A DNA stretch of 64,000 nt from Schizochytrium sp. TIO01 (taxonomy: Eukaryota; Protista; Bigyra: Labyrinthulomycetes). Under the pieces are notes generated by a model. That model did no database searches and had not been told where the DNA came from. It saw only the letters and a program-made list of their open reading frames with translations. The position numbers and the translations under genes are program-made. Numbering within the stretch: the first letter of the stretch is position 1; every line of letters starts with the position of its first letter. Shown one piece after another: positions 1-35,571 of the stretch. The DNA lies in assembly GCA_004764695.1 (NCBI GenBank), contig SMSO01000032.1, positions 5,984,483 to 6,048,482 on the forward strand, read 5' to 3'.

Positions 1-1266
1 AATGGTTACTCTCGTATTTACCACGCTTTAATTGAACTGGACGGATTTGATAATTGTAAAGATTCCATGATGAGTGACTTTTACGATCAATTTGCAAGTA
101 CTTCTTCTAGTACCCGCAAGCCACCTGAACAGGGATGTCTAGGTGCAACCCCTGAAACTTCAATTATGGACTGTGGCAAGTGGCATTCTAGGCGTTGTTC
201 GAACACAATTAATGTTCTGTACGAGGCTCGTGCACTTCAATGGTCTGCCTTCCACAACTCAATGCCTCAGTGTTCTGAGTGTCCTGGATTTATTGGTTGG
301 TGGCGTTCAGGAGCCACAGAAAGTCCGTATCAAAAGATTTTGGACATGACTGTTTTCCCTCAATGCCTTCCATTCATGGACACGACTGGCATTAAAACTG
401 ATCTAGGATTTGATATGAGTGATGCCTCTGCTTATGAAATAGATTACAATGAGGGTTTCACATGCGATAAGAATGGTTGTCGATTTACTGATGTGCTCGA
501 GGTTGATTTATCATTTGTAACAGAGGCCGTTTCTTCACGCGTATGTGCTAGTTCTGGCGACTGGTTGGCCACCAGTACAACCAGCACACTTGACATTTGC
601 CGCGAAACTTGTTATTCTGAAACCTACAGCACTTGTGCATCATTTAGTTACAACACCAATACAAAGTCATGTAAAATGTATGCATCTTGCACAGAGATTA
701 CAAGTGTTGGTGCGAGTTCTGATGATACGATCTATATTGCAAAGCCCCACTTGACTAACTCGGACGCGACCTGGGATGACCCTGCTGATTATGTCGATGT
801 TTCATCGCCTACCCCTTTCCCCACCAGCCCTACCCCTGCACCGACTTCACCTACATCTTCCCCGACTTCTCCCACACGGTCTCCCACGACCCCCTCACCT
901 ACGTCTGCACCTACAACTCCCTCACCTACCAACCCGGGTGAAACCAGAAGCCCTACCCAAAGGCCCACACCAAAGCCTACAAGCACAAGTTCCCCTACCT
1001 TCTCTCCCACCGCCCCCACAACAGGTGCCCCGACTTTCCTTACAATGCGGCCTACCACGTCTCCCACTGCGGCCTCCACAACAATTTTCGAGAATTCAAT
1101 GTTTTATATTATTGTGGGAGTGTCTCTGTTTGTCATTATCATATGCTGTTGCTTGGTCGCATGTTGCTGTCTCCGCTCACGCTCACCAACCGCCCCATCT
1201 GCTCCTTCCGCTTCAGTATACCCCGCGTATCGATCATTGGGATCAGCTCCCCCCCTAAATCTTTGA
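1..1266 (+). CDS. 5'-partial type I membrane glycoprotein: Cys-rich ectodomain (possible C-type-lectin-like end, PAN/Apple-like module), Thr/Pro mucin stalk, TM helix, Cys cluster
   Basis: Frame is open from base 1 to TGA at 1266. CRETCYSETYSTCASFSYNTNTKSCKMY has PAN/Apple-like Cys spacing; SPT/PT repeats; hydrophobic FYIIVGVSLFVIIICCCLVACCC. Confidence 0.8.
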   Translation, partial: NGYSRIYHALIELDGFDNCKDSMMSDFYDQFASTSSSTRKPPEQGCLGATPETSIMDCGKWHSRRCSNTINVLYEARALQWSAFHNSMPQCSECPGFIGWWRSGATESPYQKILDMTVFPQCLPFMDTTGIKTDLGFDMSDASAYEIDYNEGFTCDKNGCRFTDVLEVDLSFVTEAVSSRVCASSGDWLATSTTSTLDICRETCYSETYSTCASFSYNTNTKSCKMYASCTEITSVGASSDDTIYIAKPHLTNSDATWDDPADYVDVSSPTPFPTSPTPAPTSPTSSPTSPTRSPTTPSPTSAPTTPSPTNPGETRSPTQRPTPKPTSTSSPTFSPTAPTTGAPTFLTMRPTTSPTAASTTIFENSMFYIIVGVSLFVIIICCCLVACCCLRSRSPTAPSAPSASVYPAYRSLGSAPPLNL

Positions 1267-1287
1267 ATCAATTAAATAGAGTTCATA

Positions 1288-1743
1288 TTATCTTCTTAAT
1301 GAGACTAATCGTTCACCAAGCGCATTGTTTAGAAGAATTGCCATCTTATTCGCACATTCATCAGACAAAGCCGTATTATCATCCAGGATATGAAATGGGT
1401 CGAACATTTCGAACAATTTTTCGTTTAGAAATAGAAAATCGGTCGTGATTTTCATCATGTACTCAACATACTCTATAAGCATTTCACGCGAAACAATGTT
1501 ATTCTTCAATTCGAAATGAAATGTGTTCGCAAGTTTTTCAAACGATTCCTCTTGGTGGCTTAGAAATAAAAAGTACTCGAAAATGGCGAACAAAACCATT
1601 TTCTCAGAAATCAAAGCTTCGAGCGAAGTTGCATTCAAGTGTTTACGATATTTCATGCATAATAGAATCAGATCATCAAGCACTTCGTGGTTCTTGACAA
1701 ATCTAAGCCATGCAAATAGAAACACATTCATTGCTTCGTCCAT
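1288..1743 (-). CDS. Hypothetical protein, 151 aa
   Basis: ATG ORF tiling tightly between neighbours, preceded on its strand by a (CCAAAA)n tract; no recognised motif. Confidence 0.6.
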   Translation of the reverse strand: MDEAMNVFLFAWLRFVKNHEVLDDLILLCMKYRKHLNATSLEALISEKMVLFAIFEYFLFLSHQEESFEKLANTFHFELKNNIVSREMLIEYVEYMMKITTDFLFLNEKLFEMFDPFHILDDNTALSDECANKMAILLNNALGERLVSLRR

Positions 1744-1780
1744 ATTGATGCAGCTAGTAAATGCAAAGTGTCTAACTTAA

Positions 1781-1858
1781 GTTTTGGTTTTGGTTTTGGT
1801 TTTGGTTTTGGTTTTGGTTTTGGCTTCGGTTTTGGTTTTGGTTTTGGTTTTGGTTTTG
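1781..1858. repeat. (GGTTTT)n / (CCAAAA)n hexamer tandem repeat between divergent genes
   Basis: Directly read: about 13 units with one GGCTTC variant. Confidence 0.95.
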
Positions 1859-1935
1859 CTGTGTCTAGCACAAAATAAAACAATACATGAATCAAGTGCT
1901 CTGCGGATTATTGATAGTAAATACCATAATACATC

Positions 1936-2445
1936 ATGACAATCATTGAGGAACAGATTGAGAAGGTGGCGGAAGATTCTGTGACAGAAGCAAAAGAACT
2001 AGGTGATCCTACCGAGGAACATCCGAAGAACATTGAGGAGAGTGACACAAATACAAATTCTCCAAATGAAGAGCCAGAAGCAAAAGAACTAGGTGATTCT
2101 ACTGAGGAACACACGGAGAACATTGACACAAATACAAGTTCTTCAAGTGAAGAGCCAGAAGCATTTGCGCAAAAGCATACTTGTAAAATAGTGTGCAATG
2201 TGGAAGGGAATGATGAAACCTTTTATCTAACTACTCTTCCAAGATTTGCAATCCTTTCTGGAAATTTATGGAAACCATTAGATCCTAAGTTTTACATTAA
2301 GAGAATTTTCGAGGAACAGGAATCTACCTCAGACCATGGTTACAACGGGTGGATTGTTTTTGATCGGACTACCAAAGCAATCCTATGCTCAGTTGATACC
2401 GAAGGAAACGAGCAGGAAATTATTACATTTGATCCAAAGCCCTAA
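1936..2445 (+). CDS. Hypothetical acidic protein with an internal ~90-bp duplication
   Basis: EAKELGD(P/S)TEEH...DTNT...EEP occurs twice; DNA CAGAAGCAAAAGAACTAGGTGAT at 1985 and 2075. Confidence 0.7.
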   Translation: MTIIEEQIEKVAEDSVTEAKELGDPTEEHPKNIEESDTNTNSPNEEPEAKELGDSTEEHTENIDTNTSSSSEEPEAFAQKHTCKIVCNVEGNDETFYLTTLPRFAILSGNLWKPLDPKFYIKRIFEEQESTSDHGYNGWIVFDRTTKAILCSVDTEGNEQEIITFDPKP

Positions 2446-2682
2446 GTATCTTTTATAATTATGAAGAGACAATTTACTTCGGGATAACAAATAGAATTAC
2501 TCTTTTAACACTTGCCAAAAGCTATTCGATGTCCGAATTCCCAGACTTTGTCGTGCGTTGTACGCGTCAACAGAAGCTCTGCGGAACATCGGTGAAACTG
2601 ATCTTCACCGTTCTACACTCGTTGACTTATCTAACCTTCCTTTTCACACGGTTGCCGAAAAGGAAGCACGGGAGAACAATTT

Positions 2683-4365
2683 TTAATCAGGGTATCCTCC
2701 AGGTGCCCACCATAACTTTTGTCCTAGATAATTATTTACTAGTGTCTCCCCATCGTTATAACTAATGATAGCCGATGGGATAGTTGGCACATCCTCATTA
2801 CCATAATATGTTGGATTGAAAATCGAATTCGTTGCATTAATCAATCTTATAACAACTGCTACTGCACCCTTAGCCTCTGCTAGCTTTACTTTATCAAAGA
2901 AGTCACAGCCGCCCCGTTTGACCACCACAATCTTCCCACTAAACCCGTTTTTCTGACCACTACTATCACATAATGTTTCATCACCATTTGGTAGTATAGT
3001 TTGTGCATAAACTCCCTCTACACCGGGGGTGATTTCTGGCCCGAAGGAACTTGATGCGAAATCAAAACATGTGTCCTCCGCTGAACACATTTTCACAGAC
3101 TGATAGAGTGGGCTCAATGTCGGTTGAGGTGTTGGTGTCCATATCTCCCCTGCTCGTTGTACTCGAACCACAGATAAAATATTAAGCTCAAACCAATCAG
3201 GATCATCACTCGTTCCTTTGCTAGAGAATGCTGTTAGTTCATCTAATGCGGCTTGTTTGTCAAAATTATACTTTTGTAAATATGTAGCCATGACACCTGA
3301 AACAAGTGGTGCTGCCATACTCGTTCCAGACATAACCGCTGTCCCACCAGACTTGTAAGTTGATGTGATTGCCTGGCCTGGGGCCCAAACGTCAACACAC
3401 GAACCATAATTGGAAAATGATGCCCCATAATCATTACCAGCACTATCCCTCGCAAGCGCACCAACATTGATAACTCCATTTGCGGTTCCAGGTGAAGAAC
3501 AACATGCATCCTCAGCGTCATTTCCAGCTGCTACGACAACAATATTTCCAGCCTCAATCACGTCTTCTACTAGAGAATTTATACTTTTCGAGTAATCAGA
3601 ACCCACTGACAAATTAACCACATTGGTCTTATCTGAACCGTAGGTTTGTTCAATTACCCACTGAAGTCCGCCAATGAGATTCGATGACGGAAATGTTATA
3701 GATGCACCTCCAACTTTCACAGCAATACCTGTTGCCCCTCGCGCAACGCCATATGTATCAGCTAATGCTGTTCCAGCAACATGTGTACCGTGACCATTCT
3801 CATCCGTAGTAACATTACTATAAGACCAACCGAACGAAACCCGTCCACCAAAAGATCCGTGATCAATATAAACACCAGTATCTACAATATAGATCACAAC
3901 ACCGCTACCATCATATTCTAAATCCCAATTAAGGTTATCCAACGGCTGCTGAAATTGATCAATTCGATCCAAATTTGACAGAATATGTGTCTGTACTACT
4001 TGGTCGGCATGAATTTCTTCTATCCAGTAAAATTGATCGAGTAGGGAATTTGCATCTAAATAATCAGACGAAACACTAATGAAACAGTTCATTCTCGATT
4101 TCAATTGTCCAATGACTCGGGTATTTAAGCTACCTTCAAAATAGTTTTCAAATTCTTGATAAGCTACGTCACACTGGGTAGCCTTGTTCACCTCTATGAT
4201 CCACATTAGAGAATCATTATTTTGCTCATCAATCGCCTGGTTTCCAACAGAAAGTTCCTCACTTGTTGTTTGTGTAGAACATAAGAGTATCAACAATACC
4301 CCTATCGATATTGAAGCCTTCCAGAACATCTGACTTTGACTTTTGAAATTATACTTCTTATTCAT
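2683..4365 (-). CDS. Secreted subtilisin (peptidase S8, proteinase K-like) with C-terminal PA domain
   Basis: Signal-like hydrophobic stretch; catalytic motifs IVDTG, NGHGTHVAG, GTSMAAP and oxyanion AAGND; PA motif GKIVVVKRGGCDFFDKVKLAEAKGAVAVVI. Confidence 0.95.
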   Translation of the reverse strand: MNKKYNFKSQSQMFWKASISIGVLLILLCSTQTTSEELSVGNQAIDEQNNDSLMWIIEVNKATQCDVAYQEFENYFEGSLNTRVIGQLKSRMNCFISVSSDYLDANSLLDQFYWIEEIHADQVVQTHILSNLDRIDQFQQPLDNLNWDLEYDGSGVVIYIVDTGVYIDHGSFGGRVSFGWSYSNVTTDENGHGTHVAGTALADTYGVARGATGIAVKVGGASITFPSSNLIGGLQWVIEQTYGSDKTNVVNLSVGSDYSKSINSLVEDVIEAGNIVVVAAGNDAEDACCSSPGTANGVINVGALARDSAGNDYGASFSNYGSCVDVWAPGQAITSTYKSGGTAVMSGTSMAAPLVSGVMATYLQKYNFDKQAALDELTAFSSKGTSDDPDWFELNILSVVRVQRAGEIWTPTPQPTLSPLYQSVKMCSAEDTCFDFASSSFGPEITPGVEGVYAQTILPNGDETLCDSSGQKNGFSGKIVVVKRGGCDFFDKVKLAEAKGAVAVVIRLINATNSIFNPTYYGNEDVPTIPSAIISYNDGETLVNNYLGQKLWWAPGGYPD

Positions 4366-4396
4366 ACATATCTAAAATATTTTTTAATATCAACTT

Positions 4397-5422
4397 CTAT
4401 ATAAGATCCATAATAGAATCGACTTTCTCTTGACCCATGAGTTTAACTGACGCATTATATAATTGCTTCAATGCAAGCTTTCTAGTAGCGTAGCCTCGAA
4501 TAGCTTCGAACTTCTTGTCCAAAGGATGGACCTCTTCTGAGTTACACTTACGTTTCTTTTGAGACGGAACTTCATCATTATCGAGAGCAAGATTTAATTT
4601 ATCGTCAAGGTTGAGTCTTTTTGCATGATACTTAAGAGAGTATACTACGTTGTTGAGACGAGCATAACCCAGAAGATTTTCATCATTGAAACCCTGAATC
4701 GTACACATAACCGTTAGGTTGTTGGCCTCAGCTTGAGTTGCGTACTTTTCGTATATAGCCTTTAGGTGCTCTTTTTCGAGTTTATGAAGCTCCGGGTTGC
4801 TAATATCGCCCACGAATGATAACTTAAACGTCTTAAAACGAGGTAGATGTTCCAAAACGAGGCTGACAATCCTATCGTAAGAAGGACCATTAGTCACATA
4901 GATAGGATAAACATGTATGACAAGATTCTCAACCTGTTCCGGAAGATTCTCAAAGAGACCAAATAAATCACCAGCGCGAAGATTGCCAATCTCAAGTGAA
5001 CGAAGTTTTGGGAAGTCAATGAGAACTTCAAACTTACGTAGATCATAGCCAAACACCTCTTTGTGTAAAATCGTCAAATATTCAAGCTCAAGAGACACTG
5101 AATCGTCGAGTATCTTCCAGATCGAGGGCATATCTACTTCAATGCCCCTCAACCGAAGGTGGCACGTGTGTACCTTACTGGTAGAGAACTTTTTAATAAT
5201 TTTTCTCAAGCTCTTTGTCGAAGAGTATCCATCTTGTCTAGGACAAATGTCAATAGTGCGAATGTGGTATACCTTTCGAAAATGGAGATCTAGTCTACCT
5301 TTGATTTCATACAAGCTTATAAATTCAGGTATACAAAATACGCTATTCTCCTCATCATCAAGTCCAGAAATTATTTCATTTATAAGGGACTCAGCCTCAT
5401 CTTCTTCCGACATACCCCACAT
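4397..5422 (-). CDS. Tandem paralog 1 of a ~342 aa family: LRR/RNI-like repeats plus basic NLS-like motif
   Basis: LEYLTI, FPKLRSLEIGNL and LPRFKTFKLSF LRR-like segments; QKKRKC; clear paralogy with the next two ORFs. Confidence 0.8.
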   Translation of the reverse strand: MWGMSEEDEAESLINEIISGLDDEENSVFCIPEFISLYEIKGRLDLHFRKVYHIRTIDICPRQDGYSSTKSLRKIIKKFSTSKVHTCHLRLRGIEVDMPSIWKILDDSVSLELEYLTILHKEVFGYDLRKFEVLIDFPKLRSLEIGNLRAGDLFGLFENLPEQVENLVIHVYPIYVTNGPSYDRIVSLVLEHLPRFKTFKLSFVGDISNPELHKLEKEHLKAIYEKYATQAEANNLTVMCTIQGFNDENLLGYARLNNVVYSLKYHAKRLNLDDKLNLALDNDEVPSQKKRKCNSEEVHPLDKKFEAIRGYATRKLALKQLYNASVKLMGQEKVDSIMDLI

Positions 5423-5474
5423 TGGTGTTTGGTGTTTGGTGTTTGGTGATTGGTGTTTGGTGTTTGGTGATTAG
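5423..5474. repeat. (TGGTGTT)n heptamer tract directly upstream of paralog 1 start
   Basis: Directly read; equals (CCAAACA)n on the coding strand. Confidence 0.9.
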
Positions 5475-5535
5475 CTAATGATGTAAAGTAAAAATGTTGA
5501 TTTATTCCATTATTTAAACATCTTCCAGGAATATT

Positions 5536-6567
5536 CTAGAAACGGTTCAAGATTGAATCGGCTTTATCTTGACCCATGAGTTTTACGGACGCATCGTATA
5601 CTTGCTTCAATGCAACCTTCCTTGTAGCGTAGCCTCGAATAGCTTCAAACTTCTTGTCCACAGGATGGACCTCTTGTAAGTTACACTTACGTTTCTTTGG
5701 AGACGGAGCTTCATCCTCGTAGTCTCTATCTAGAGCAAGACTCAATTCTCCGTCAAGTTTTAATCCTTTTGCCTCCTCCATAAAACTATCGACTACGTGA
5801 TTGAGACGAACATAGCCCAATAGATTTTCATCCTCTAAACCTTGAATGGTGCACATGGATGTCAGGTTGTTGGTCTCAGCTTGGGTTGCGTATTTTTCGT
5901 ATAGAGCCTCTAGTGATTCTTTTTCGAGTTTAAGAGGCGCTGAGTCGCTAGTCTCCCCCGCGAACGATAACTTAAACGTCTTAAAACGAGGTAGATGTTT
6001 CAAAACGAGGCTGACAATCTGATCGTAAGAAGGACCATAAGTCGTGTTGAGTGCGTGAACATGAACGACAAGATTCTCAACTTGCCTCGGAAGATTCTCA
6101 AAGAGACCACGTAAAGAATCAGCGAGAAGATCGCCAATCTCAAGTGAACGAAGCTTTGTGAAGCGTTTGAGAACTTCGAACTTACGTATATCAAAGTAAA
6201 ACACATTTTCGTGCATAATACTCAGTTTTGTGAGAGAGTTACCCCACACTGCACTGATTGTTTGCCAAATTAATAGCATCTCCACATCCAAACCTTCCAA
6301 TTGTAGGCGACAATCAAGCACCGGGCTATGTCTAAACTTTTTGATTATATAGATCAATTCAATAGTCACATCGCGACTATCTCTCCGAGGATCAATATTG
6401 AAGGTGCGAATATGCTCTATGGGTTCAAGACACATATTCAATTCTTTTTTGAATTCGTATAGATAGATGACATTGGTTATACCAAAATAGGTCATTTCTT
6501 TATCATCAAGATCGTCAAGGAGTTCATAGACATGATCTTCAACCTCATCTGCCGTCAACTCAGCCAT
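5536..6567 (-). CDS. Tandem paralog 2 (LRR-like, NLS-like PSPKKRKC)
   Basis: 343 aa; C-terminal half nearly identical to paralog 3. Confidence 0.8.
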   Translation of the reverse strand: MAELTADEVEDHVYELLDDLDDKEMTYFGITNVIYLYEFKKELNMCLEPIEHIRTFNIDPRRDSRDVTIELIYIIKKFRHSPVLDCRLQLEGLDVEMLLIWQTISAVWGNSLTKLSIMHENVFYFDIRKFEVLKRFTKLRSLEIGDLLADSLRGLFENLPRQVENLVVHVHALNTTYGPSYDQIVSLVLKHLPRFKTFKLSFAGETSDSAPLKLEKESLEALYEKYATQAETNNLTSMCTIQGLEDENLLGYVRLNHVVDSFMEEAKGLKLDGELSLALDRDYEDEAPSPKKRKCNLQEVHPVDKKFEAIRGYATRKVALKQVYDASVKLMGQDKADSILNRF

Positions 6568-6589
6568 TTTTATTGGCGAAGAATGTTCT

Positions 6590-6718
6590 TGGTGTTTGGT
6601 GTTTGGTGATTGGTGTTTGGTGTTTGGTGTTTGGTGTTTGGTGTTTGGTGTTTGCCGTTTGGTGTTTGGTGTTTGGTGTTTGGTGATTGGTGATTAGTGA
6701 TTAGTGATTGGTGATTAG
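6590..6718. repeat. Long (TGGTGTT/TGGTGAT)n heptamer tract upstream of paralog 2
   Basis: Directly read. Confidence 0.9.
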
Positions 6719-6779
6719 TTAATGATGTAAAGTAAAAATGTTGATTTATTCCATTATTTAAACATCTTCCAGGAATATT

Positions 6780-7811
6780 CTAGAAACGGTTCAAGATTGA
6801 ATCGGCTTTATCTTGACCCATGAGTTTTACGGACGCATCGTATACTTGCTTCAATGCAACCTTCCTTGTAGCGTAGCCTCGAATAGCTTCAAACTTCTTG
6901 TCCATAGGATGGACCTCTTGTAAGTTACACTTACGTTTCTTTGGGGACGGAGCTTCATCCTCGTAGTCTCTATCTAGAGCAAGATTCAACTCTCCGTCAA
7001 GTTTTAATCTTTTTGCCTCCTCCATAAAACTACCGACTACGTGATTGAGACGAACATAGCCCAATAGATTTTCATCCTCGAAACCTTGAATGGTGCACGC
7101 ACTTGTCAGGTTGTTGGTCTCAGCTTGGGTTGCGTATTTTTCGTATAGAGCCTCTAGTGATTCTTTTTCAAGTTTAAGAGGCACTGGGTCACTAGTCTTC
7201 CCCACGAACGATAACTTAAACGTCTTAAAACGAGGTAGATGTTTCAAAACGAGGCTGACAATATGATCGTAAGAAGGACCACAAGTTGTGTTGGGTACGT
7301 GAACATGAACGACAAGATTCTTAACCTGTCTCGGAAGATTCTCAAAGAAACCACATAAAGAATTAGCGAGAAGATCGCCAATCTCAAGTGAACGAAGTTT
7401 TGTGAAGTGTTTGAGAAGTTCAAACTCACGTAGATCATGGCCAAACACCTCTTCGTGCAAAATAGTCAAATATTCAAGCTTAGAAGAGAATGAATCTTTG
7501 AGTATATTACGGATCGTGGGCATATATAATCCAAGGCCTCTCAGCTGAAGGTGACATGTATGTACCTTACAGGGGAAGAATTTTTTCAGAATTTTTCCCA
7601 AGCACCTTGTCGGAGAGCATCCAACTCGCCTAGGATCAATCTCAATAGTGCGGATGTGGTCTATTCTTTGGAAATGGAAATCTAGTCTACGCTTGATTTC
7701 ATACAAGCTTATACATTCCGGTATACAAAATACGCTATTCTCCTCATCATCAAGTCCAAAAATTATTTCATCTATAAAGGACTCAGCCTCATCTTCCGTT
7801 AGATCCCACAT
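6780..7811 (-). CDS. Tandem paralog 3 (LRR-like, NLS-like PSPKKRKC), mosaic of paralogs 1 and 2
   Basis: N-terminus matches paralog 1 (GLDDEENSVFCIPE); C-terminus matches paralog 2 (KLMGQDKADSILNRF). Confidence 0.8.
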   Translation of the reverse strand: MWDLTEDEAESFIDEIIFGLDDEENSVFCIPECISLYEIKRRLDFHFQRIDHIRTIEIDPRRVGCSPTRCLGKILKKFFPCKVHTCHLQLRGLGLYMPTIRNILKDSFSSKLEYLTILHEEVFGHDLREFELLKHFTKLRSLEIGDLLANSLCGFFENLPRQVKNLVVHVHVPNTTCGPSYDHIVSLVLKHLPRFKTFKLSFVGKTSDPVPLKLEKESLEALYEKYATQAETNNLTSACTIQGFEDENLLGYVRLNHVVGSFMEEAKRLKLDGELNLALDRDYEDEAPSPKKRKCNLQEVHPMDKKFEAIRGYATRKVALKQVYDASVKLMGQDKADSILNRF

Positions 7812-7851
7812 TGGTGTTTGGTGTTTGGTGTTTGGTGATTGGTGTTCGGTG
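7812..7851. repeat. (TGGTGTT)n heptamer tract directly upstream of paralog 3 start
   Basis: Directly read. Confidence 0.9.
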
Positions 7852-7976
7852 CTTTAAAATAATTTCAAGGGTTATACCAGGAACATTCAAAGAACATTCT
7901 AGAAAAAAATCACAAAAGTATATGCTTTACATACATATCAAATATACATTATTTAAAATACATAATGTAATTCTGA

Positions 7977-8519
7977 ATGGGGATCTATGACAAATCATTA
8001 CTCGTGCGTCGCCACCGGGAACTCTCATCATGTCCTGGATACACTGCTACCCCAGCCCCTACCAGGCGGAATACACCAACTGCTCAACCAACTACCCCTA
8101 TACCTACACGAAACCCTACCACAAAGAGTCCTACTACAAATTCACCTACATCAAAACCTACAACCCAAACTCCTACGACTTTCCATCCAACTTACAAACC
8201 AACTACACCTATTCCTACATCAAAGAGTCCGACGGCACAACCGACTAACTCTCCTACAACTGAACCAACTCTCCCGACGGGCTTTCCAACTAAATACCCG
8301 ACGTTCTATACAAGTAGTCCAAAACCAACGACGTCTGTAACATTTGAATCTACCAACTCCTATGAAGGACTAACGATCGGAATTGGTGTTGCTTGTGGTT
8401 TTTTGTTTCTAGTTCTATTCAGCTGTTTGTGCTATGTTTGTTCTAGAAGGAAACGTAGGTTGAATAACTACACTCGTGTTGGAAATACAATACAACACAC
8501 ATCTATGCCACTTTTGTAA
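7977..8519 (+). CDS. Small Thr/Pro-rich mucin-like membrane protein
   Basis: PT repeats, TM segment LTIGIGVACGFLFLVLFSCLCYVC, then basic stop-transfer RRKRR. Confidence 0.75.
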   Translation: MGIYDKSLLVRRHRELSSCPGYTATPAPTRRNTPTAQPTTPIPTRNPTTKSPTTNSPTSKPTTQTPTTFHPTYKPTTPIPTSKSPTAQPTNSPTTEPTLPTGFPTKYPTFYTSSPKPTTSVTFESTNSYEGLTIGIGVACGFLFLVLFSCLCYVCSRRKRRLNNYTRVGNTIQHTSMPLL

Positions 8520-8534
8520 AATAATGTGCAAGGT

Positions 8535-8603
8535 CCAAAACCAAAACCAAACCCAGAACCAAAACCAAACCCAGAACCAAAACCAAAACCAGGACCAAAA
8601 CCA
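8535..8603 (+). repeat. (CCAAAA/CCAGAA)n tract upstream of Cys-rich paralog A
   Basis: Directly read; it produces the spurious PKPKPNPE extension in the ORF track. Confidence 0.85.
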
Positions 8604-8621
8604 ACACTCTCGAGATCAATT

Positions 8622-9056
8622 ATGAAAGAAAATGAGTGTGAGTCGTGTCCGAATGATGTCCCACCAGGAACAATTCGTATTCCTTGTAATCTGTGCAATG
8701 GATATGTATGTGGCATATTGGACTGTGTCCTGGATGAAAAGGAAGGTTGTTGCCAGTGGTGTATCCGTTACAACCCTGAAATCCGAGATTTAAAAACATG
8801 TGCCTTTTGCGGTGAAGAATTCATTGATACAAAATGGATCAGGAAGGAATGCCCGGATTGCTCGACCGTTTTCAAATACCCGTATTGTTTTAACTGTGTA
8901 GAAGAGCCGACACAGTTTGATTGTAGGTGCTGTGGAAAGGCTATGAACAAAGTTTGTGAAGCTTGTGATATGGACCTGGAAGCCTCTATATTTGAGTGTA
9001 CTTCAATGTGCAAACCTTGTTCAAGGACTAACCCCGATAAAAGACATAAACAGTAA
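8622..9056 (+). CDS. Cys-rich (multiple CxxC, zinc-binding-like) protein, paralog A, 144 aa
   Basis: Start reassigned to ATG 8622 because the N-terminus MKENECESCPND is shared with paralog B; many CxxC pairs. Confidence 0.75.
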   Translation: MKENECESCPNDVPPGTIRIPCNLCNGYVCGILDCVLDEKEGCCQWCIRYNPEIRDLKTCAFCGEEFIDTKWIRKECPDCSTVFKYPYCFNCVEEPTQFDCRCCGKAMNKVCEACDMDLEASIFECTSMCKPCSRTNPDKRHKQ

Positions 9057-9129
9057 CTTTTATTTTTTTATAGACATAGGTGTCCGACCCTTAGAATTGT
9101 CAGCAAATCCAAAACTCTTGAGTTCAACC

Positions 9130-9561
9130 ATGAAAGAAAATGAATGCGAGTCGTGCCCCAATGATCTCCCACCCGGAACGACCCGTATTCCCTGTAGTGG
9201 GTGCAACGGGTGTGTTTGTGGTATCTTAGATTGTGTCTTAGATGAATATTTTGGATTTTGTCGATGGTGCATTGATCGCTTTAAAGTAGTCGAATGTAAT
9301 AATTGTTTACAACCATTTCAAAATAGTCCTGCCGTTGAATGTGGAGAATGCTGCGCAACACAAGACCCATCAATATGTCAAGACTGTCTGGATAAGGCAA
9401 CTATATATACTTGTGGTTGTGGAAGAGGTTTGAACGACCTATGCATCGTGTGTAGTGTTAACACTCAAGTATGTCCTTGCTGCAATGAAATCAAGTGTCA
9501 TAAATGCTTTGACGGAGCCATGCACTACTCATGTAATAAATGTGCTACCCGTAACTCATAA
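9130..9561 (+). CDS. Cys-rich (multiple CxxC) protein, paralog B, 143 aa
   Basis: ATG 9130; MKENECESCPNDLPPGTTRIPC..CNG.VCGILDCVLDE shared with paralog A; conserved upstream ACTCTYGAGWTCAA. Confidence 0.75.
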   Translation: MKENECESCPNDLPPGTTRIPCSGCNGCVCGILDCVLDEYFGFCRWCIDRFKVVECNNCLQPFQNSPAVECGECCATQDPSICQDCLDKATIYTCGCGRGLNDLCIVCSVNTQVCPCCNEIKCHKCFDGAMHYSCNKCATRNS

Positions 9562-9715
9562 ATCATTATAAATATTAAGTAAAATTTTGACTTAAAAGAT
9601 AAATTATTCTTAGTATTATCCTCAATTGAGCACGGCTCGTAATGAAAATATATTTTGACAAACTTATTAAATTATTTATTCCAGTGGGAGTAGCTTGATG
9701 TTACAGAGAGACACC

Positions 9716-10070
9716 CACGTGAAGGTACTATATTCCCATCACGGTCCCAGTCTTCACGCGTGAAGGTACTATATTCCCATCACGGTACCATGTCTTCACG
9801 CGTGACGGTCCCAGTCTTCACGGCGTGGGTCCCAGTCTTCACGGCACGGTCCCAGTCTTCACGCGACCTTTCTACGGGTCGTAAAAATAAAAGGAAAAAC
9901 TTTTAAATTAAAAAAATTTCACGCCCCTCACAAGAATTTGAATTTCTTCCCAGTGGGGGTATGTGAGGGATGTGAGGGCGTGATGAAAGAATTAACGTGA
10001 ACACTTTAAGGTGGTAAAAAAATTAATTTTTCTTCACGCCCATATTAATTGTTAATAGTTGCGTGAAAAG
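9716..10070. repeat. Subterminal repeat array built on TTCACG(C): direct repeats, palindrome and inverted repeats
   Basis: 28-bp direct repeat at 9718 and 9759; GGTCCCAGTCTTCACG at 9743, 9807, 9828 and 9848 (variant at 9784); perfect palindrome CTTCACGCGTGAAG at 9752-9765; inverted pairs 9917-9932/9971-9983 and 10031-10039/10061-10070 in AT-rich spacers. Confidence 0.9.
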
Positions 10071-10084
10071 ACCTTAAGTTGGCC

Positions 10085-10160
10085 CTCCGTAGTAAAGTCG
10101 CGTAGGGCCGGGTCAGTAGTATGATAGGGGACTGCATGCGAAGCCCCGGTGTTGAATGTT
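10085..10160 (+). rRNA. 5S rRNA gene, 5'-truncated (approximately nt 44-119 only)
   Basis: TCCGTAGTAAAGTCGCGTAGGGCCGGGTCAGTAGTATGATAGGGGACTGCATGCGAAGCCCCGGTGTTGAATGT aligns without gaps to eukaryotic 5S nt 45-118. Helix V (GCCGGG/CCCGGT), loop E (TCAGTA/GAA) and helix IV (GTATG/CATGC, TAG-GGGA-CTG) all pair. The upstream 43 nt lack CATAC and the partners of helices I and II. Confidence 0.9.
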
Positions 10161-10203
10161 TTTTTCCTTTTTTTTTCTTTTTTTTTTTCCCGTTTTTCCC
10201 TTT
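10159..10203 (+). terminator. Oligo-dT RNA polymerase III terminator after the 5S fragment
   Basis: Several long T runs immediately after the 5S 3' end. Confidence 0.8.
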
Positions 10204-11405
10204 CGAACAACTAAAAAACAGGCAACATCATTGTGCAGAGTCTAAATCTCCTTGAACGCATGCTAATGATATACGTCAGCGAGCTTGTTCACTCGTGCAA
10301 GGCGCCTATTTTCATCGACTAAATCACTTGTACGCAGGGCAAAGTTTGCATTCCGATCACCATTTCGTATGCAAATCGACTAGACTGACAATGAGGTGGT
10401 CGCAGACGCTTCACCATAGCTTTCGCCAAGCCTCTGGGACTTGATACTTCAGACGAACCATTTGTGCTGTGCTCAGCTCCTGTGCAATATTTTAAATTAC
10501 ATTTGTCTCCTTCTACAAGTTTTTTTGCCTATTCGACAGTGTATCTGGAAAATAAACTAATGATTATCTTGGCCCCCAAAAGAAAAGTATTCCTATTAGG
10601 TGTCCTTTTAAATGCAAAGATTTTCTTTGCATTCTGCAATTGTATTGCAAGTTAGCGTGAGGCGTTCACCAAGAGATATCTTGTCCGAGTGGGATGTTGA
10701 ACGTTCTACTTATAGATACATACCTATGTACACACTTAGCTGTGATACTTCAATTGATTGTCAAGAGAACACTGCACTCGCATCCCTGCTCCTGAGCTTC
10801 GAGAGGTATAGAAAGCTAGCAATTTAAGGGTTCTGCCTGTCCAAAACAAATGAATAAAGTCTGATCATTTCCGAATCTTGTTCCTCCTTATCTCCCTTCT
10901 CTCCTTTGTTTTGTTCTCGGAAAGAAATAGGGACTCAATAAAATTAGTCCTCCATAACTGTGTTCTTGTTAAGAGGTGGATAATGATCTTGTGATAACAG
11001 CACTGCCCTCATCGTGTTTTGCTACCTCAAAATCTGTAGATAGGTAAGTAGACAGGACTCCAATCGGCCCAAGTTTGTTTGAAGACTTTTCACGGTTAGA
11101 AAACATCAAGAGAGGTCAAACACACAACCTCTGTCTCGTTGTAGCCTGCACCCTCCTTTATGCAGAGCTACAACAATATCATATCTAGTCTTTCGAAGTG
11201 TGCGAGAGGAAGGAGGACGAAATTGACGACGATCCAAACCCAAATTTGTTTATTATTGGGACGCTGTTATTCTTTTTTGCGCGTGTGTTGCCATATCCAC
11301 TGCAGAACCGGCCCAAACCCAAGAGAAACGTAGAACCAAAACAAGAAGAAGAAAACAAACGTACCAGACCCAGAAAACAAAATGGCTTGGCTACCGAATT
11401 TCTAA

Positions 11406-11822
11406 ATGGATTACGAAAAAGAAGAGGATGTTGGATTTCATCAAGACAACATTGAATACTCTCTTGAGTTACTTAGTGAGACTGTCGTTCTATTTGCGTA
11501 CAAGTATGATAATGCCAAAGTGGCCATGTGCGTTTCCCCTGCTGCGCACGAGGTGCTCCCTATTGAAGAGTCTGATCTAGCCTTAATTGAAGAAGACGGG
11601 GATAGGGTTTACATTGCACCAGCCCGGCTGCGCGGCTTTCTAGGCGAAATTTGCCTCCCCGAGCTAGACATTGACTGTCTAGGAGACATCCAAAAGCAGG
11701 ACATTTCTTACGGCAATTATCTCTTTGATGTCACACTCTCTAGCACCTTGATTACCGGTGCGAACGATGGTGTCATTTTTGACGTGCGGCTCTCCAGAGA
11801 ACGAATGGAACCTTGGGTTTAA
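11406..11822 (+). CDS. Hypothetical acidic protein, 138 aa
   Basis: ATG ORF with globular-looking composition, A/C-rich leader and AT-rich trailer; no recognised motif. Confidence 0.55.
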   Translation: MDYEKEEDVGFHQDNIEYSLELLSETVVLFAYKYDNAKVAMCVSPAAHEVLPIEESDLALIEEDGDRVYIAPARLRGFLGEICLPELDIDCLGDIQKQDISYGNYLFDVTLSSTLITGANDGVIFDVRLSRERMEPWV

Positions 11823-11991
11823 TTTAATATATAACAAGGAAGCAAAAGAAATAAAAACAAAAAAACCAAACCGCTTTTATTCATTAAAAAATAGTCAAAT
11901 CAAGAAGAAGAACGAATAAATTTAAATATCTCTGCACTTCTTTCAACAACCAAGCAAAATCGACAAAAACAAAACAAAACAACAACAGAAA

Positions 11992-12732
11992 ATGACCAGC
12001 CTTGACTTGAGTGAACTAGCGCGAGAAGCAAGGAGTCGCTGCGAACTGCAAAACGGCCCCTTGATAACTTGGTTTTTACAGCGAGTAGCCCTGGAAACCG
12101 AAGAAAAAAACAGAACCAACCTCGTTGAAGCTTACAAGTTCGCAATGCATTATGATGGCGGCCTTTCCTTTTCGTTTCTCTGCAAACTTAACGCAATCAT
12201 CCTCGGCCAGCCCCACAGCAGCAGCAAATTGCGAAGTGCATCCGCATTCTCATTCAGGCGTCACCAAATTACCTGTGATTTGACGAGAATTCCTCTTGTT
12301 CATCCAACCCCTGGGCTTCTTGATCGCGCACTGAGGAATCTCATTATAAAATACCAAACCACACCTTTCTCGATCACAGGAAAGCAAGATGTAAAAGATA
12401 TAGAAGCCGCCGCATTGCAAGATGCTTTGCACGTTGCGACAGATTTTATAGCAAGGTTCCTGTTTCTCAAACCCTTTGCATTTGGCAATGGAAGGACCGC
12501 TCGTGTGCTCTTTTCGTGGTTACTTAACTCCTTTGTCCCGGGCCCAATTCCATTGCTTGGACCCTCCCAAGACTACGCCGAAGCGACTAAAGTAACAGCA
12601 GCAGCAGCAGCAGCAGTGGATCCGTTGGCATTGTTCGAAACTTGCCATCAATCCAAAGACAAGCAGCGGTTCAGTGAGTACACAAGTTCTGCAGTGGAAA
12701 ATCACTTGCGAGAGATCCTCTCCGTAACCTAA
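11992..12732 (+). CDS. Fic/Doc (Fido) domain protein with a non-canonical active-site motif
   Basis: FLFLKPFAFGNGRTARVLF versus canonical HPFx(D/E)GNGRxxR; preceding helical Fic-like segments (LCKLNAIIL, KLRS). Confidence 0.85.
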   Translation: MTSLDLSELAREARSRCELQNGPLITWFLQRVALETEEKNRTNLVEAYKFAMHYDGGLSFSFLCKLNAIILGQPHSSSKLRSASAFSFRRHQITCDLTRIPLVHPTPGLLDRALRNLIIKYQTTPFSITGKQDVKDIEAAALQDALHVATDFIARFLFLKPFAFGNGRTARVLFSWLLNSFVPGPIPLLGPSQDYAEATKVTAAAAAAVDPLALFETCHQSKDKQRFSEYTSSAVENHLREILSVT

Positions 12733-12835
12733 CTAAGTAGCATTTTATTATAAAATGGATTGGAAACAAAACAAACATTGATTATTTCTTCTTCTTCTTC
12801 TTTTCATGAGTTAGGGGTTATTAACTTGTGAGTGT

Positions 12836-14770
12836 TCAAAAAACTTGTTTGATTTTTTCGCCTTTCAAGAGCTTGACGAGGTTCTCCTTCTCAAGCCTTG
12901 CGCGGACTTGAAAGAACCGACCATCAAGGTCGTCGTATATCCCTGAATGACTGAAGTCGATAAAAATTGCCTTCTCAGGATCGTCCTTCGACTTCAGGAT
13001 GTTCGGAAGTCTCAGGTCGCCATGCAAAACACCACGCGCGTGTATCTTGTCTAGGGCATCCTTGACGCTTGTCTTGAACTCTTCAGTGAGAGAATCAAGA
13101 GATTCATACGAGAGTGGCTCACCTGCATAAGAGGTAGCAAAACCATACGGCAATCCATCAGTATCAGTAATGGAGCCATGGCCCAGGTATTTGGGAATAC
13201 AATCCCCCTGCAAGTCAGACAGGTTTGCGTAGACTTCAGCTTCAAAATCGATCTGGTTGAGACGCCAATCAGCATCTTCGTGATCGCCGAAATCGTCGTA
13301 TTTAACCACTGCTCGCTCGCCCATGATCTCACACTCAACTGCGCTACCTGTGTAGCAGTCAGAAATGTGCTTGCACTCGTAGAGATCACCCCAGGTGATG
13401 GGAGTGTCATGCTCTTTGTAAAGGAGGTTGTTCCGCCGCACCCCCCTTGCACCTCCTCTAAGTCCACCTCCCCCACCTCGATTCTGCGTTTGTAGCTGGT
13501 CTTGATCCCATTTACATTTCCTGGGAAGGTCGGTGTGAGGAACAGAACGACCATGCATCGTGCAACCTTCTGAGCCTGTGCACGACACCAAGATGCCTTT
13601 TCCTCTATCATCTAAAAATTGTGGCACTTCTCCCTTCAAAGCAATCATAGTAACTAAGGCAAGGAACTGTGGTATACTTAGTCCATATCGTGTCATAGAG
13701 TGTCTTCCTGGGAGCATCGGCGTTGTAGCAAGGTTACCTTCGCAATCTCGGAAGAAAGCTGCAGTGAACATATAGTTGGAGTAAACACCAACAAACTTGC
13801 CGGACTGGACCATATAGTTATACAACTGTCTAATTGGAGACACAGGGTGGTGTCTCTCGGAACCAGTGCATTCATCATGGTTTGCATCCGCACTACACCA
13901 GCGGTCAAAAAATTCATTGTTCGAAGAACCAAGACCCTTCAACTCACCAACAAGTGAAACATCGAACAGATGCGCTTGATCTTGTATGATAGTCCCAACA
14001 ACAAAGTCTGGCTTTAAAGCCTTGCGTCCATCCTTTACCGGGTAGTCCGACGTATAGCCGAGCTGGACACTTCCAGTTCCTTCTTCGACGGGCAAAACAC
14101 TGGTGACTGCTTGGAAAACTTGTGAAAAACAAAGCCCAATGGAACTCTCGGACCTAAGGAAAAGAGACTGCATTGAATGACAGAGTAGACTATCAACATT
14201 TAGACTCGTTGCTTCTTCCTGGAGCTTGCTCACAAATCCTTCATCGATACAGTGCTTCATGAATCTTCCGATGTCAACTTTGATGACGCTTGCAGGGGCA
14301 AAAATGTAGTTTTCGCTAATAACGGCGGTGCTCGATACAGTTTGCGAAACATGTTGAGGGATTCTAGGTAAAGCGCACCCAAGGGATTCCCAAACTGATC
14401 CGGAGAAGCGCGAAATGCTTTCTCCTTCTTCACCGCCTCCAGACTCAAATTCCTCAATCTTTCCCTCGGTTTTCTCGATTTTAACTCGGGCTTCCTTCAT
14501 ATCAGATGCTATGCGCAGAGCTCCAAGGATCTGATCTTCTTCATCGCAACCATCAAAATTGTGTTCGATGTCTTCCTTCTCAATTTTATCTGCGAGATAT
14601 CTTTCGAGCTCCTTACGTGCACCCATCGTGGTAATTTCCCTTTTCAGCTCTCGGAATTCATCTTCAAGTTTTTCAAGTCTAGCCTGTTCAGTTTTTAGAC
14701 GGTCATGATAGAGGGCAAGTCGGTTAAGCATCCCCGCGTTGTCAGTTCGCTGCGATGAGCGACTGCTCAT
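12836..14770 (-). CDS. Coiled-coil + PD-(D/E)XK nuclease-like + Cys cluster + protein kinase (Spok/Crinkler REase-kinase-like); start uncertain (ORF open to 14860)
   Basis: Coiled coil RLKTEQARLEKLEDEFRELKRE; KPDFVVG...VGELK...IRQLYNYM; kinase VVK, EAEVYANLSDLQGDCIPKYLG, HGDLRLPNIL, FIDFS. Confidence 0.85.
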   Translation of the reverse strand: MSSRSSQRTDNAGMLNRLALYHDRLKTEQARLEKLEDEFRELKREITTMGARKELERYLADKIEKEDIEHNFDGCDEEDQILGALRIASDMKEARVKIEKTEGKIEEFESGGGEEGESISRFSGSVWESLGCALPRIPQHVSQTVSSTAVISENYIFAPASVIKVDIGRFMKHCIDEGFVSKLQEEATSLNVDSLLCHSMQSLFLRSESSIGLCFSQVFQAVTSVLPVEEGTGSVQLGYTSDYPVKDGRKALKPDFVVGTIIQDQAHLFDVSLVGELKGLGSSNNEFFDRWCSADANHDECTGSERHHPVSPIRQLYNYMVQSGKFVGVYSNYMFTAAFFRDCEGNLATTPMLPGRHSMTRYGLSIPQFLALVTMIALKGEVPQFLDDRGKGILVSCTGSEGCTMHGRSVPHTDLPRKCKWDQDQLQTQNRGGGGGLRGGARGVRRNNLLYKEHDTPITWGDLYECKHISDCYTGSAVECEIMGERAVVKYDDFGDHEDADWRLNQIDFEAEVYANLSDLQGDCIPKYLGHGSITDTDGLPYGFATSYAGEPLSYESLDSLTEEFKTSVKDALDKIHARGVLHGDLRLPNILKSKDDPEKAIFIDFSHSGIYDDLDGRFFQVRARLEKENLVKLLKGEKIKQVF

Positions 14771-14787
14771 GCTAAGTCGGTTGCTTT

Positions 14788-15249
14788 TCACGCCTCCCGC
14801 CTTTCCAACACGTTGATCCCGAGTGGTCCCGTCCCCTTTCGCGTGAAGGGGCGCAGACAAGCCGTGCTTGGCTTTCTTTCTTGAGAGACGAGGAAGGGCA
14901 TTGCTTTCTCCTTTTCTTCTTCTTCTTCTTCTTCTTCTTCTTGCCTTGTTTCAAGCCCTTTCACACTCTTAACGATTTCACTAATGGACGGCCTATCAAT
15001 CGTGTTCGGGTTTTGCTTACCTTCAACAACTTGGAAAAGGGAGAGTGCCTGAGAGACTAAGAGTGCACACTCTGTCTTTGTTTCCTCCAGTGCTGCAGTG
15101 TCTGCAAGGACACGCAAGAGAGAGTGGCTTGCGGTTGTATACGCCGCGACCGCCCTTTTCTGACACAGAGGAACTTTGAATTCACTCTCTCGTACAATCT
15201 TCTGTGCTTTTTCGTCTCCTCTCACTGCAGCATCAATGGCCAGGGCCAA
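14788..15249 (-). CDS. Possible upstream coding segment or pseudogene (helical, poly-Glu) overlapping the kinase 5' end
   Basis: Coding-like ORF without a good ATG; (GAA)n tract; may be a frameshifted 5' part of the kinase gene. Confidence 0.3.
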   Translation of the reverse strand: MALAIDAAVRGDEKAQKIVRESEFKVPLCQKRAVAAYTTASHSLLRVLADTAALEETKTECALLVSQALSLFQVVEGKQNPNTIDRPSISEIVKSVKGLETRQEEEEEEEEEKEKAMPFLVSQERKPSTACLRPFTRKGTGPLGINVLERREA

Positions 15250-17968
15250 GGAAGGACTAATGGAAGGTCGAATTTCGTGCCTCGAGAACCTTCAATTTCG
15301 AAGCCAATTCACCAGTTTTCTCTTGCAAATTCCGAGAAACAGTCAACACTCTCTCAAAAGCACCAACGATAGACCTCGTTGAAGGTCTCCGTACGAGATT
15401 CGACGGCTTCTCGGGGCGCAGAGCCATCCTTGTTTTATCTTCTTCAACTCTGCACGTGCTGACAGAATTCCGGATTTACCTGCAACGAAAAACACCCACT
15501 TTCACTCAACAAGAGATTACATCCTAGATCTAGCCAGACCAACAGAGCTCAGAATAACACGCGACGTGCTCGATCGATAGAAATCCAAACGTGTCAATTA
15601 CGCGTGCTTCAATCTGAGAGGGACATTCGTTTTGCTTGAGCAAGCGTGATTGTCCTTTCCCCCTTTCAGCTTTACCAGAACCCGAAAGCGATCTTTCCAT
15701 TTGCGTACCTCAAAAATCTTTTAAGGGAAGAGAGATCGAAAATCTTTTACCTCGAAAGAAATGAAATGACAAAAGTAAAAGTTTTTCCAGGGGTGACATC
15801 TAAGATGGCCTACCGCAAATTTTCTTTCTCTCGACTTTATTGTTTTCGAGGGTACTTCCTTTTCGAAATGAGAATTTGCCCTCTCCTTGAACCCCCTTTC
15901 CCTACCATTCCCAGTTCTTGTTTCCCCTCATCCTGATTCATTTCATTTCTGATAAGACGTCTTCAAATTGGTGGGAGTGAGTGATCGGGCGATCTCAAAA
16001 GCAATTAATTGAAGAGAAGAAGCTTATGGTCAATGTCACACCTCAACACTTTTAATTATTATTTAAAACAAGAATTTGTTTTATTTAATTTAAAATCAAG
16101 TTTTAAATAAGGCTCGACCTTTTTCGACTAGACTACTTTTGAGTATAACTTTATAATTAAAATCTAATTCAAGTCCTTCATTCACTCCAAGCATGATTAT
16201 AAAGATTGAGTAGCGCATATTCTGAATGACGTTGCCGAATGAAGACTCTCCCTTTCACTGATTCTCTCTTTATTCTTTTATTCTTTTCTTTTTTTTTAAA
16301 GGGCGATTGTCAAAGGAGCCTGTACCAAACATCAGATCTGCGTTGCTACACATCAACTCGTTTTTACGAATTTTGCAGAAATTCTCAATCAAACTTAGGT
16401 CCTTTAAGTCACTAAATTAGAAGGTCAAAGTCCAGTCAACATAGACACTGTCAGTAAGTGTCCTTCGTGTTTAAATTCTAGAGCTTCAACCCGCCCACAT
16501 GACATGGCCATTAATTCACGAACACTGGCTTCATGAATTTGGTTGTACTTTTCGAGTCCTTGACTTTCAAAAGTCTTTCGTTCGTGACAAGTGCACGTCC
16601 GACAACTCATAAGTTCAAGGGCGCTGACGCTATTTGTGCGTTCGAGTTCCATTTGCCAGGGCCACTATCTTAATAAGCAATTGAGTGTTGAGCTCACTCA
16701 TTAGGTATTGCCCATGCTGCAACAGCTCTGCATACTCTACCAGAAGGCACATCAGGATTCCCAATTGGGTAGCTCAAGTCCCTCCCTCAAGTCCCTCCCT
16801 CGGGAGGAAAATGCACGAAAAGAAGACAAAGTCTTTACAGTTTGAAAAGTAAAGAAAACTATTTCCTATTGGCATAAAAGTTGTAAACATTGTTCCCTGT
16901 CTGCAGACATTCAAGTTTTCTTTCTTTCTTTTTTCTTTCCAAAATTTGCATTCAATCTCCCAGTGTTTTTGATAGGCCTTCCTTCCTACCTAATCTGAAA
17001 TTATGTTAAACCTCACGTTGAGTTTGGGGAATCTTACAAGCGGCAGATAAAAGAAAGCTACGACATCTCTTTTTTATTCTTTATTATTTTTTTAATTTAT
17101 AAAATTAAAACATTTTTCTCTCTTAAAGATACCCACTCGACGTCATCACAAGCAACAACACGGTGGAGAAAATGCGCATGGCATACACACACGCAACCTC
17201 TCGAGGAGTACTCTGCACTAGCGCACTATTGGTCGTCTAGAGAGGCTTTGTATAAAGATTGTCATTCTTGTTAGGCAGCCTTCAGAACAGAAGCATTTGG
17301 GGATAACGGCGAAGGCGCTCTCACTAGTCAGAGGTAACAAGTTAACATCTTTTAGTTTATAACGTACCTACTCCCTTTCCACGCTCTCACTTGTCAGAGT
17401 CAACTCCTTGGGTTGAAATATAACATCTTTTAGCTTTGCTCTTGCCGGGTAGTGCCATCTCGGGGTGATTGCTGTGGTTTGAGTTACTGCCTAATTCTTA
17501 ATAATAATAAAATATAAAAATATTTAGAACATAGAAAGAAAGCACCTCAGGCTGTAAAAAAGAAAAGAAAAAAAAGAGTACCTCATATAATGAGGTCCGA
17601 GTTATTAGGAGTGCCTAGTAGTATACTCTCGACTGGCCCCGCGTATTGTAGATTTAGTCGGAGAGATTAAGAGCATAAACTGACTGCAGTATGGTAAATC
17701 CAACATTTCACGATTTACATCAGCATATAGGCGTATATTATATACATTATACCTTTAATTTTATTTATTTATTTATATAGTTAAAAATAATAGTGTACCT
17801 TGTGAATAACATTTCAAACTAAAATCAATGTCTTATAAATTAATATATATTTTAATAATCATTCAAATTCAAGTTGATAAATTTCTTTTTTTTAAAAAAG
17901 AAATAGCTAGAACAATTTGTTGGCAGCACCTGCAGAAAGCAAACCCCAAATTAGCTTCAATTCAAGCC

Positions 17969-35406: not shown

Positions 35407-35410
35407 ATCT

Positions 35411-35482
35411 GGGGGATTAGCTCAGCGGTAGAGTGGCGGATTCCAGATCCGTAGGCCAGGAGTTCAAATCTCTTATCCCTCA
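35411..35482 (+). tRNA. tRNA-Trp(CCA) copy 1
   Basis: 72-nt cloverleaf: acceptor GGGGGAT/ATCCCTC, anticodon arm GCGGA-TTCCAGA-TCCGT, T-arm AGGAG-TTCAAAT-CTCTT; followed by a T run. Confidence 0.95.
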
Positions 35483-35571
35483 TCCTTTTTTTCCTATTTT
35501 TTAAATTCAGAAATACCTTGTTTGAATCATTATAAATGCTTGGTGTCATCGTCCATCATACAGTGGTATAT

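Follow-up and report, generated by a model that had tools for sequence, protein, structure and literature searches.

The window considered here (the whole stretch of DNA analysed, 64,000 nucleotides) contains a point at which an element adjoins a 5S rRNA gene, as was already stated in a preliminary description of this DNA. This locus raises the question of how the element came to end inside a 5S gene, and whether a short inverted match some 210 bp within the element has any part in it. It is fairly probable that an AurliV-2-type mirusvirus was integrated site-specifically into a 5S gene by a predicted virus-encoded tyrosine recombinase, that the junction is the resulting attachment site on the right, and that the short match is a worn duplicate of this junction. 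Taken alone, the flagged 17-mer is much less important than the junction itself. The features discussed are collected in Table 1.

Table 1. Features at the end of the viral element and in the adjoining 5S rRNA gene (window positions).
Feature	Position	Strand	Basis or remark
Last genes of an AurliV-2-type mirusvirus	1..9561	.	ORFs, Pfam, AurliV-2 synteny; mean GC ~0.41
Repeat array, 20-41 bp repeats with 10 TCACG motifs in both orientations	9718..9865	.	Strain gain/loss site
Gapped inner inverted likeness to the junction, 24/32 with one gap	9846..9877	-	20 of 3000 shuffles
Flagged 17-mer, matching the junction in inverted form at 15/17 (4 viral + 13 5S bases), without outer dyad arms	9861..9877	-	Shuffles
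Five further TCACG motifs, four of them as two inverted pairs	9918..10067	.	Candidate arm or accessory binding sites
Junction dyad, viral arm GGCCCTCCG	10081..10089	+	Arm comparison
Virus-5S junction, left limit of the sequence common to intact 5S genes	10090..10091	+	Loose ends, depth jump
Host 5S rRNA gene, 3' 70 nt, with whole internal promoter (box A, IE, box C), then T tract	10091..10160	+	Rfam RF00001
Junction dyad, 5S arm CGTAGGGCC	10101..10109	-	8/9 against viral arm

The Viral Side of the Window

The open reading frames (ORFs) of window positions 1-9561 were compared by eye with the last ORFs of AurliV-2 in the accessible part of Supplementary Data 2 of PMC12606086. The order was found to be identical and the translations near-identical, with nine window ORFs having as their counterparts, in order, AurliV-2 ORFs 478, 574, 479, 910, 757, 908, 907, 145, and 567. 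ORF and Pfam analysis of this region revealed a PAN-domain protein, a subtilase with a PA domain, three paralogues of 341-343 aa, a Pro/Thr-rich membrane protein, and two Cys-rich proteins. On the host side, one protein of the window was found to have a Hondaea protein as its 90% cluster partner. Based on the AurliV-2 gene order and this Hondaea-clustered protein, bases 1-10090 are identified, on sequence grounds, as the right terminus of an AurliV-2-type mirusvirus, the host being a thraustochytrid and most likely Aurantiochytrium. The mirusvirus hallmark genes (HK97 capsid, terminase, and portal) fall outside this window.

The terminal genes, their order, and the low GC are common to the window and to the AurliV-2 (LE-Chr15) mirusvirus of Aurantiochytrium limacinum, and each virus sits integrated in a part of the chromosome that carries 5S (Collier et al. 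bioRxiv 10.1101/2023.06.15.545109; PMC12606086). The AurliV-2 reference has an additional ORF (148) near the position of the window's repeat array (PMC12606086), and an internal rDNA array occupies the place of the host genes that follow the 5S gene in the window.

An Atlas search with the window proteins gave weak leads only, which were unnamed or F-box-like; the 341-343 aa paralogues were weakly F-box/LRR-like. These paralogues stand in tandem at 4397-7851, with an array of a 7-bp unit before each of the three. Homologue searches with the 343-aa and 143-aa proteins returned no relatives, 9 of 10 window proteins had no exact match in the protein collection, and when two viral proteins were used to scan for related loci, no candidate was confirmed (0 of 2 and 0 of 10). 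When the 5S halves and the virus end were used as short DNA patterns, no match was found in the viral or metagenome contig collections; one genome-contig match, in a bacterial MAG (L001), was taken as chance.

Position of the Virus-5S Junction

Public contigs from 7 of 24 listed runs, drawn from 6 studies, were compared with this region. Among the loose ends listed, ends lying before 10091 were found in 6 of the 7 runs (X2, X4, X6, X8, X11, and X13), and these carry the upstream part of intact 5S genes. Depth over 10091-10156 is higher by one to two orders of magnitude. Because of these loose ends and the depth jump, 5S sequence is shared with the window only from 10091 onwards; intact multi-copy 5S leaves the window to the left of this base, and therefore bases 10087-10090 (CCGT) are viral. 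The crossover point may lie some bases to the right of 10090/10091. Originally, the whole of 10087-10103 had been described as the 5S box A region. This is correct for 10091-10103, which begins at Rfam position 51, but not for the four viral bases, and the misreading arose because these resemble the Rfam consensus there.

Moreover, the 5'-truncated Rfam RF00001 model scores 39.6 bits vs. 32.5 bits for the full-length model, so the part upstream of the junction is not 5S. On the same scores, and on the lack of a 5S-like fold in the chimeric RNA, the possibility that the viral end rebuilds a full 5S gene, as in tRNA-type target restoration, was rejected. The first 5S base, 10091, is the 5' edge of box A, a region numbered +50 to +64. 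A 5S gene starts some 50 bp ahead of its box A (PMC12409998); no 5' portion of 5S was found within the 64-kb window.

Since the whole internal promoter is kept to the right of the junction, a chimeric Pol III transcript is possible. Such a transcript (10042-10160) could begin about 49 bases inside the virus; the chimeric virus-5S RNA has no 5S-like fold (z -1.04). Many variant 5S copies of 10091-10156, with 2-6 changes each, were also seen on unique contigs of the runs, some of them departing at 10092-10095. These copies are likely pseudogenes.

The Junction in Other Strains and in Diverged Virus Ends

Contigs of the virus end were found to reach 17-29 letters into the 5S gene, in identical register, in 4 of the 7 runs (X1, X6, X8, and X11, from 3 studies). 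Bridging of the junction was defined as 31 letters on each side, a length present in X8 record 28 alone; the shorter reach of the other contigs is as expected, because contigs there enter a repeat. The X2 contig ends at 10090, and the pieces listed for X4 and X13 fall short of the junction. The empty target also exists, as intact 5S copies are present as loose ends in the runs.

Most of the virus ends listed are 96-99% alike. X6 contains two different ends, one of which (record 21) departs by 19 substitutions and 2 gaps over its 137 viral bases and is about 85% alike. Of these substitutions, 18 are listed between 9987 and 10078 and the remaining one is probably at 9960, by inference. The changes listed for this end spare both the 12 terminal viral bases and the four TCACG cores within 9954-10090, and all 18 of its visible 5S bases are unchanged. 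That these 32 of 137 positions should be free of change has a probability of about 0.006, calculated by hand and post hoc. The terminal stretch 10079-10090 has no listed change in X1 record 2 either, and a third, more worn virus end, X8 record 28, also continues through 5S. As a single ancestral insertion may be common to the strains, and one of the runs may even be that from which the window comes, these rows cannot be counted as independent events.

The left end of the virus lies beyond the window. A circle junction, in which the two viral ends are joined, was not among the loose ends listed in the 7 runs, contigs being prone to drop rare forms. In X13, the virus-end contigs over 9660-9991 have a depth of 25-37, compared with 4-6 for unique contigs with variant 5S copies. 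This excess possibly reflects several copies or a free form, contig depth being no copy number.

The Inner 17-mer

The preliminary description had singled out 9861-9877 for its ungapped 15/17 match to the reverse complement of 10087-10103 and for its overlap with the last TCTTCACGCG repeat. Both statements hold: the repeat lies at 9856-9865, and the match has no ungapped extension. The shuffling proposed as a check likewise confirmed that a 15/17 match is rare at the local composition. With dinucleotide shuffles of 9679-10078 compared against the 17-mers of 10079-10158, it was reached in 6 of 5000 shuffles in either orientation and in 2 of 5000 in the inverted one; with the 17-mer fixed, it was reached in 1 of 20000. 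In the real 64 kb, 54 rows show 15/17 inverted within about 270 nt, most of them in simple or AT-rich repeats. Three loci of ordinary complexity (9861, 29458, and 59738) contain such a pair, which corresponds to about one per 20 kb. The gapped likeness pairs 9846-9877 with 10087-10117, and its extension alone was reached by 471 of 50000 shuffles.

The inner site is to be read as a likeness of the junction rather than of 5S. Its match to the 13 nt derived from 5S is 11/13, a level reached with the fixed 13-mer in 157 of 20000 shuffles and with any 13-mer of the 5S part in 177 of 1000 (542 of 3000 with gaps). The original view of the site as a copy of 5S is therefore not supported, as a 5S-only match of this quality is common and the significance comes from the four viral bases. 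The 17-mer corresponds exactly to the stretch between the outer six-base dyad arms, GGCCCT/AGGGCC.

Conservation of the 17-mer in homologous ends had been suggested as a further check. It was found intact in 6/6 near-identical ends for which all differences are listed (X1, X2, X4 record 21, X6 record 19, X8 record 27, and X13), and none of the 13 differences listed for X11, out of 14, falls within it. This constancy says little, because those ends differ at about 7 of 200 sites (~3.5%). A diverged end, X4 record 20, lay outside the comparison. In the diverged X8 record 28, however, the match falls from 11/13 to 9/13. Aligned by eye, a 30-letter loose end of this record agrees with 9865-9894 at 22/30; the central eight bases (TTTCTACG) are kept, and the surrounding 4-bp dyad shows one compensating change. 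In this one diverged end, the inner site is conserved no better than the bases on either side of it. No strand-changing joint at the inverted pair is listed in any of the 7 runs, one repeat joint having been dropped in X6, and no inverted form of the 210-bp end is found among the joints listed, where contigs hide rare forms.

Taken together, the flagged 17-mer probably arose as an inverted duplicate of the junction, or attachment core, and has become worn since. When the origins are judged individually, a relic of the core comes close to an even chance. A chance match to which the shared ACGCG contributed is considered rather doubtful, a working second site is somewhat more doubtful, and any other origin is improbable.

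The Junction Dyad and the TCACG Motifs

The two arms of the dyad that flanks the junction agree at 8/9 positions, which was equalled by 100 of 20078 viral positions and by 221 of 20000 shuffles. The dyad, which was found post hoc, is a modest one (0.5-1.1% of controls). The earlier proposal that one recombinase reads both viral and 5S sequence still offers the likeliest cause of the target choice, but the better candidate for its site is this junction dyad rather than the inner 17-mer.

TCACG motifs cluster towards the virus end, with 15 in 9701-10090 compared to 12 in 1-9700 and 73 in 10091-64000. Loose ends were found in the region of the repeat array, at 9716, 9743, and 9756, in X8, X11, and X13, where other sequence joins. 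The array varies and is probably present in further copies at other places in the virus. In X11, 2.2 kb of other sequence lies ahead of 9743, and the array coincides with gene gain or loss.

A Candidate Recombinase

In the accessible table of PMC12606086, AurliV-2 ORF 16 (805 aa) follows a 5-kb gap as the first gene of the virus; no function is annotated for it, and its Pfam column is blank. AurliV-1 ORF 726 was reported to have Foldseek matches to an NDC10_II protein (2e-5) and to Flp (0.017) (PMC12606086). By eye, this ORF is similar in look to ORF 16. In the first 400 residues of ORF 16, an L-T-T-G-L-R box followed further downstream by N-K can again be picked out by eye, and these resemble motifs of tyrosine recombinases. 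Judged from these residues, ORF 16 looks like a tyrosine recombinase. Both ORFs have about 800 aa and the look of the Flp/Crypton type.

A recombinase-subtilase gene fusion is named in the same table (PMC12606086); it was not evident from the names and Pfam columns of the best 120 of 626 longer subtilase relatives. Among the hits listed, searches with the window's own proteins reached no recombinase homologue. Elsewhere inside the virus there is a transposase/TnpB-like element, presumably of the IS607 type, which is unrelated to the junction. This element comprises AurliV-2 ORFs 388-389 (PMC12606086 table).

Proposed Integration and its Alternatives

Site-specific integration builds on what is directly observed: which virus the end belongs to, the base at which it is joined, the register that several strains and one diverged end have in common, and the presence of the dyad and of the motif cluster. 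A circular viral genome would recombine with a host 5S gene, the recombinase binding both dyad arms and cutting within the 7-11 bp between them. The viral arm would mimic the 5S arm in inverted form, like an att core, and the TCACG cluster could act as arm or accessory sites. The predicted enzyme would be AurliV-2 ORF 16, the first gene at the other virus end. The host has many 5S genes, which are subtelomeric, so that the loss of a single copy would be cheap for it and the provirus would end up subtelomeric, in agreement with the published location. AurliV-2 DNA has been reported in DNase-protected particles (PMC12606086). Packaged DNA requires either excision or replication out of the chromosome, which fits excision but is no proof of it. 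A more far-reaching version is held tentatively, at a little under an even chance: a Flp/Crypton-like recombinase encoded by the first gene would insert and excise the ~270-kb genome at one 5S base, the inverted inner core 210 bp inside and the TCACG motifs would set the direction, and thraustochytrid mirusviruses would be truly temperate.

The published view places AurliV-2 "between rDNA arrays" and invokes sub-telomeric recombination (10.1101/2023.06.15.545109; PMC12606086). Along these lines, the junction could descend from a single old accidental insertion, by repair or subtelomeric recombination as has been suggested for LE-Chr15, which was then inherited and copied between chromosome ends, leaving the dyad and the inner match as by-products. 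This would agree with the closeness of most listed ends (96-99%), with the multi-copy state of the flank to the right of the 5S gene, and with the lack of a named integrase in the accessible parts of the mirusvirus papers. However, the end that is only ~85% alike keeps its terminal 12 bases and motif cores and shows no change in the 18 bases of 5S that are visible. Moreover, the virus is reported to be intact, expressed, and packaged (PMC12606086), a recombinase-like gene heads the element, and the host genes to the right of the window's 5S gene, as opposed to the internal rDNA array of the reference, suggest another 5S locus. An accidental origin is therefore considered unlikely. Slightly less credible still is a role for the inner 17-mer as a second recombinase site in working order, bound by the same protein as the junction, which would help to shape the synapse or would allow inversion of the 210-bp end, as in a switch. 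Its excess over chance, its precise span of the 17 bases between the outer dyad arms, and the retention by eye of TTTCTACG and of a compensated 4-bp dyad in the diverged X8 end would suit such a role, but the site is without the outer GGCCCT/AGGGCC arms, it is down to 9/13 in that same end, and a strand-changing joint is seen in 0 of 7 runs among the joints listed.

The preliminary description had also named TFIIIA or TFIIIC as the protein that might recognise both sites, so that Pol III factors would bridge the virus end to the 5S gene and choose the target. The cut does lie at the 5' edge of the internal promoter, with the whole promoter on the 5S side, and there is a precedent in Ty1 and Ty3, which tether to Pol III factors. 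Tethered elements usually insert beside their target gene, however, rather than within the footprint of the factor. Furthermore, TFIIIA is weak on box A and requires the intermediate element (IE) and box C (PMC12409998), whereas the inner site offers 11/13 of box A and nothing significant beyond it, its IE/box C match being equalled by 2808 of 3000 shuffles. As box C is missing there, binding of TFIIIA at the inner site is unlikely, and target choice by Pol III factors is very improbable. The inner site was also rejected as a type 1 Pol III promoter.

Comparison With Known Systems

In lambda-type attP/attB systems and in the prophages of tRNA genes, a core dyad with spacing on the scale of 7 bp is combined with separate repeated arm sites and a conserved RNA gene as the target. 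These are similar to the core dyad, the candidate arm sites, and the RNA gene target at the window junction. Unlike in the prophages of tRNA genes, the viral end supplies no 5' half of 5S, and the target gene stays broken here.

Phaeoviruses integrate via a tyrosine recombinase and a dyad attP (PMC13236599). The proviruses of Ectocarpus phaeoviruses are alike in belonging to a giant virus, in having a tyrosine recombinase (here a predicted one) near one end, and in having an attP inverted repeat around a core, and the imperfect direct repeats at their right end can be likened to the virus end in the window (PMC13236599). Phaeoviruses, however, are Nucleocytoviricota which use a 2-5 bp CC core at many genomic sites (PMC13236599), while the virus described here belongs to Mirusviricota and apparently uses one fixed site in a conserved multi-copy gene.

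Starships target 5S rDNA via tyrosine recombinases and are, like the virus described here, very large, with a tyrosine recombinase (here a predicted one) as first gene and short end homology (PMC11162782; 10.1101/2022.08.04.502770). Their 5S target is internal (23% of 222 sites, at least 5 distinct targets), and the window junction is likewise internal to 5S. Starships are fungal transposons with DUF3435 captains, whereas here the element is a virion-forming stramenopile virus. Membership of the Starships was rejected, as the host is a thraustochytrid and not one of the Pezizomycotina and the Pfam column of ORF 16 is blank; the resemblance would be one of working only.

In their accessible parts, the AurliV-2 papers give no junction base, 5S target, or integrase (10.1101/2023.06.15.545109; PMC12606086). 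Integrase, recombinase, and 5S rRNA are unmentioned in the main text of PMC12606086, as are integrase and 5S in its supplements, to the extent that these are accessible. The accessible parts of four other papers (10.64898/2026.07.28.741200, PMC10827195, PMC12911909, and PMC12768974) name no mirusvirus integrase or 5S target, and at the level of titles and abstract openings, with subscription journals outside the scope, no report of either was found. Site-specific integration would, if true, provide the first integrase and att site for Mirusviricota, convergent with the fungal Starships on one target gene. It bears on how mirusviruses become latent or integrated, for which accidental subtelomeric recombination is the published view, and integration at a 5S site would explain a provirus that adjoins rDNA. 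In the mirusvirus papers covered, no culture model other than A. limacinum appears. With the base of the junction defined, and with a core dyad and a possible enzyme to start from, integration becomes testable by PCR and mutagenesis, and it is predicted that industrially used strains carry excisable proviruses in their 5S genes. A recombinase that places ~270 kb into a multi-copy 5S site would, if true, be a useful insertion tool.

The Right Flank

To the right of the 5S gene, the flank is multi-copy over at least 10200-11400. A Fic-domain gene at 11992-12732 resembles AurliV-1 ORF 638 by eye, and two kinase-like ORFs lie within 10200-20017. These genes are perhaps older viral or subtelomeric cargo. 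Further along the window, at 35410-37111, five near-identical tRNA-Trp(CCA) genes are clustered, the first three of which are 161 bp apart.
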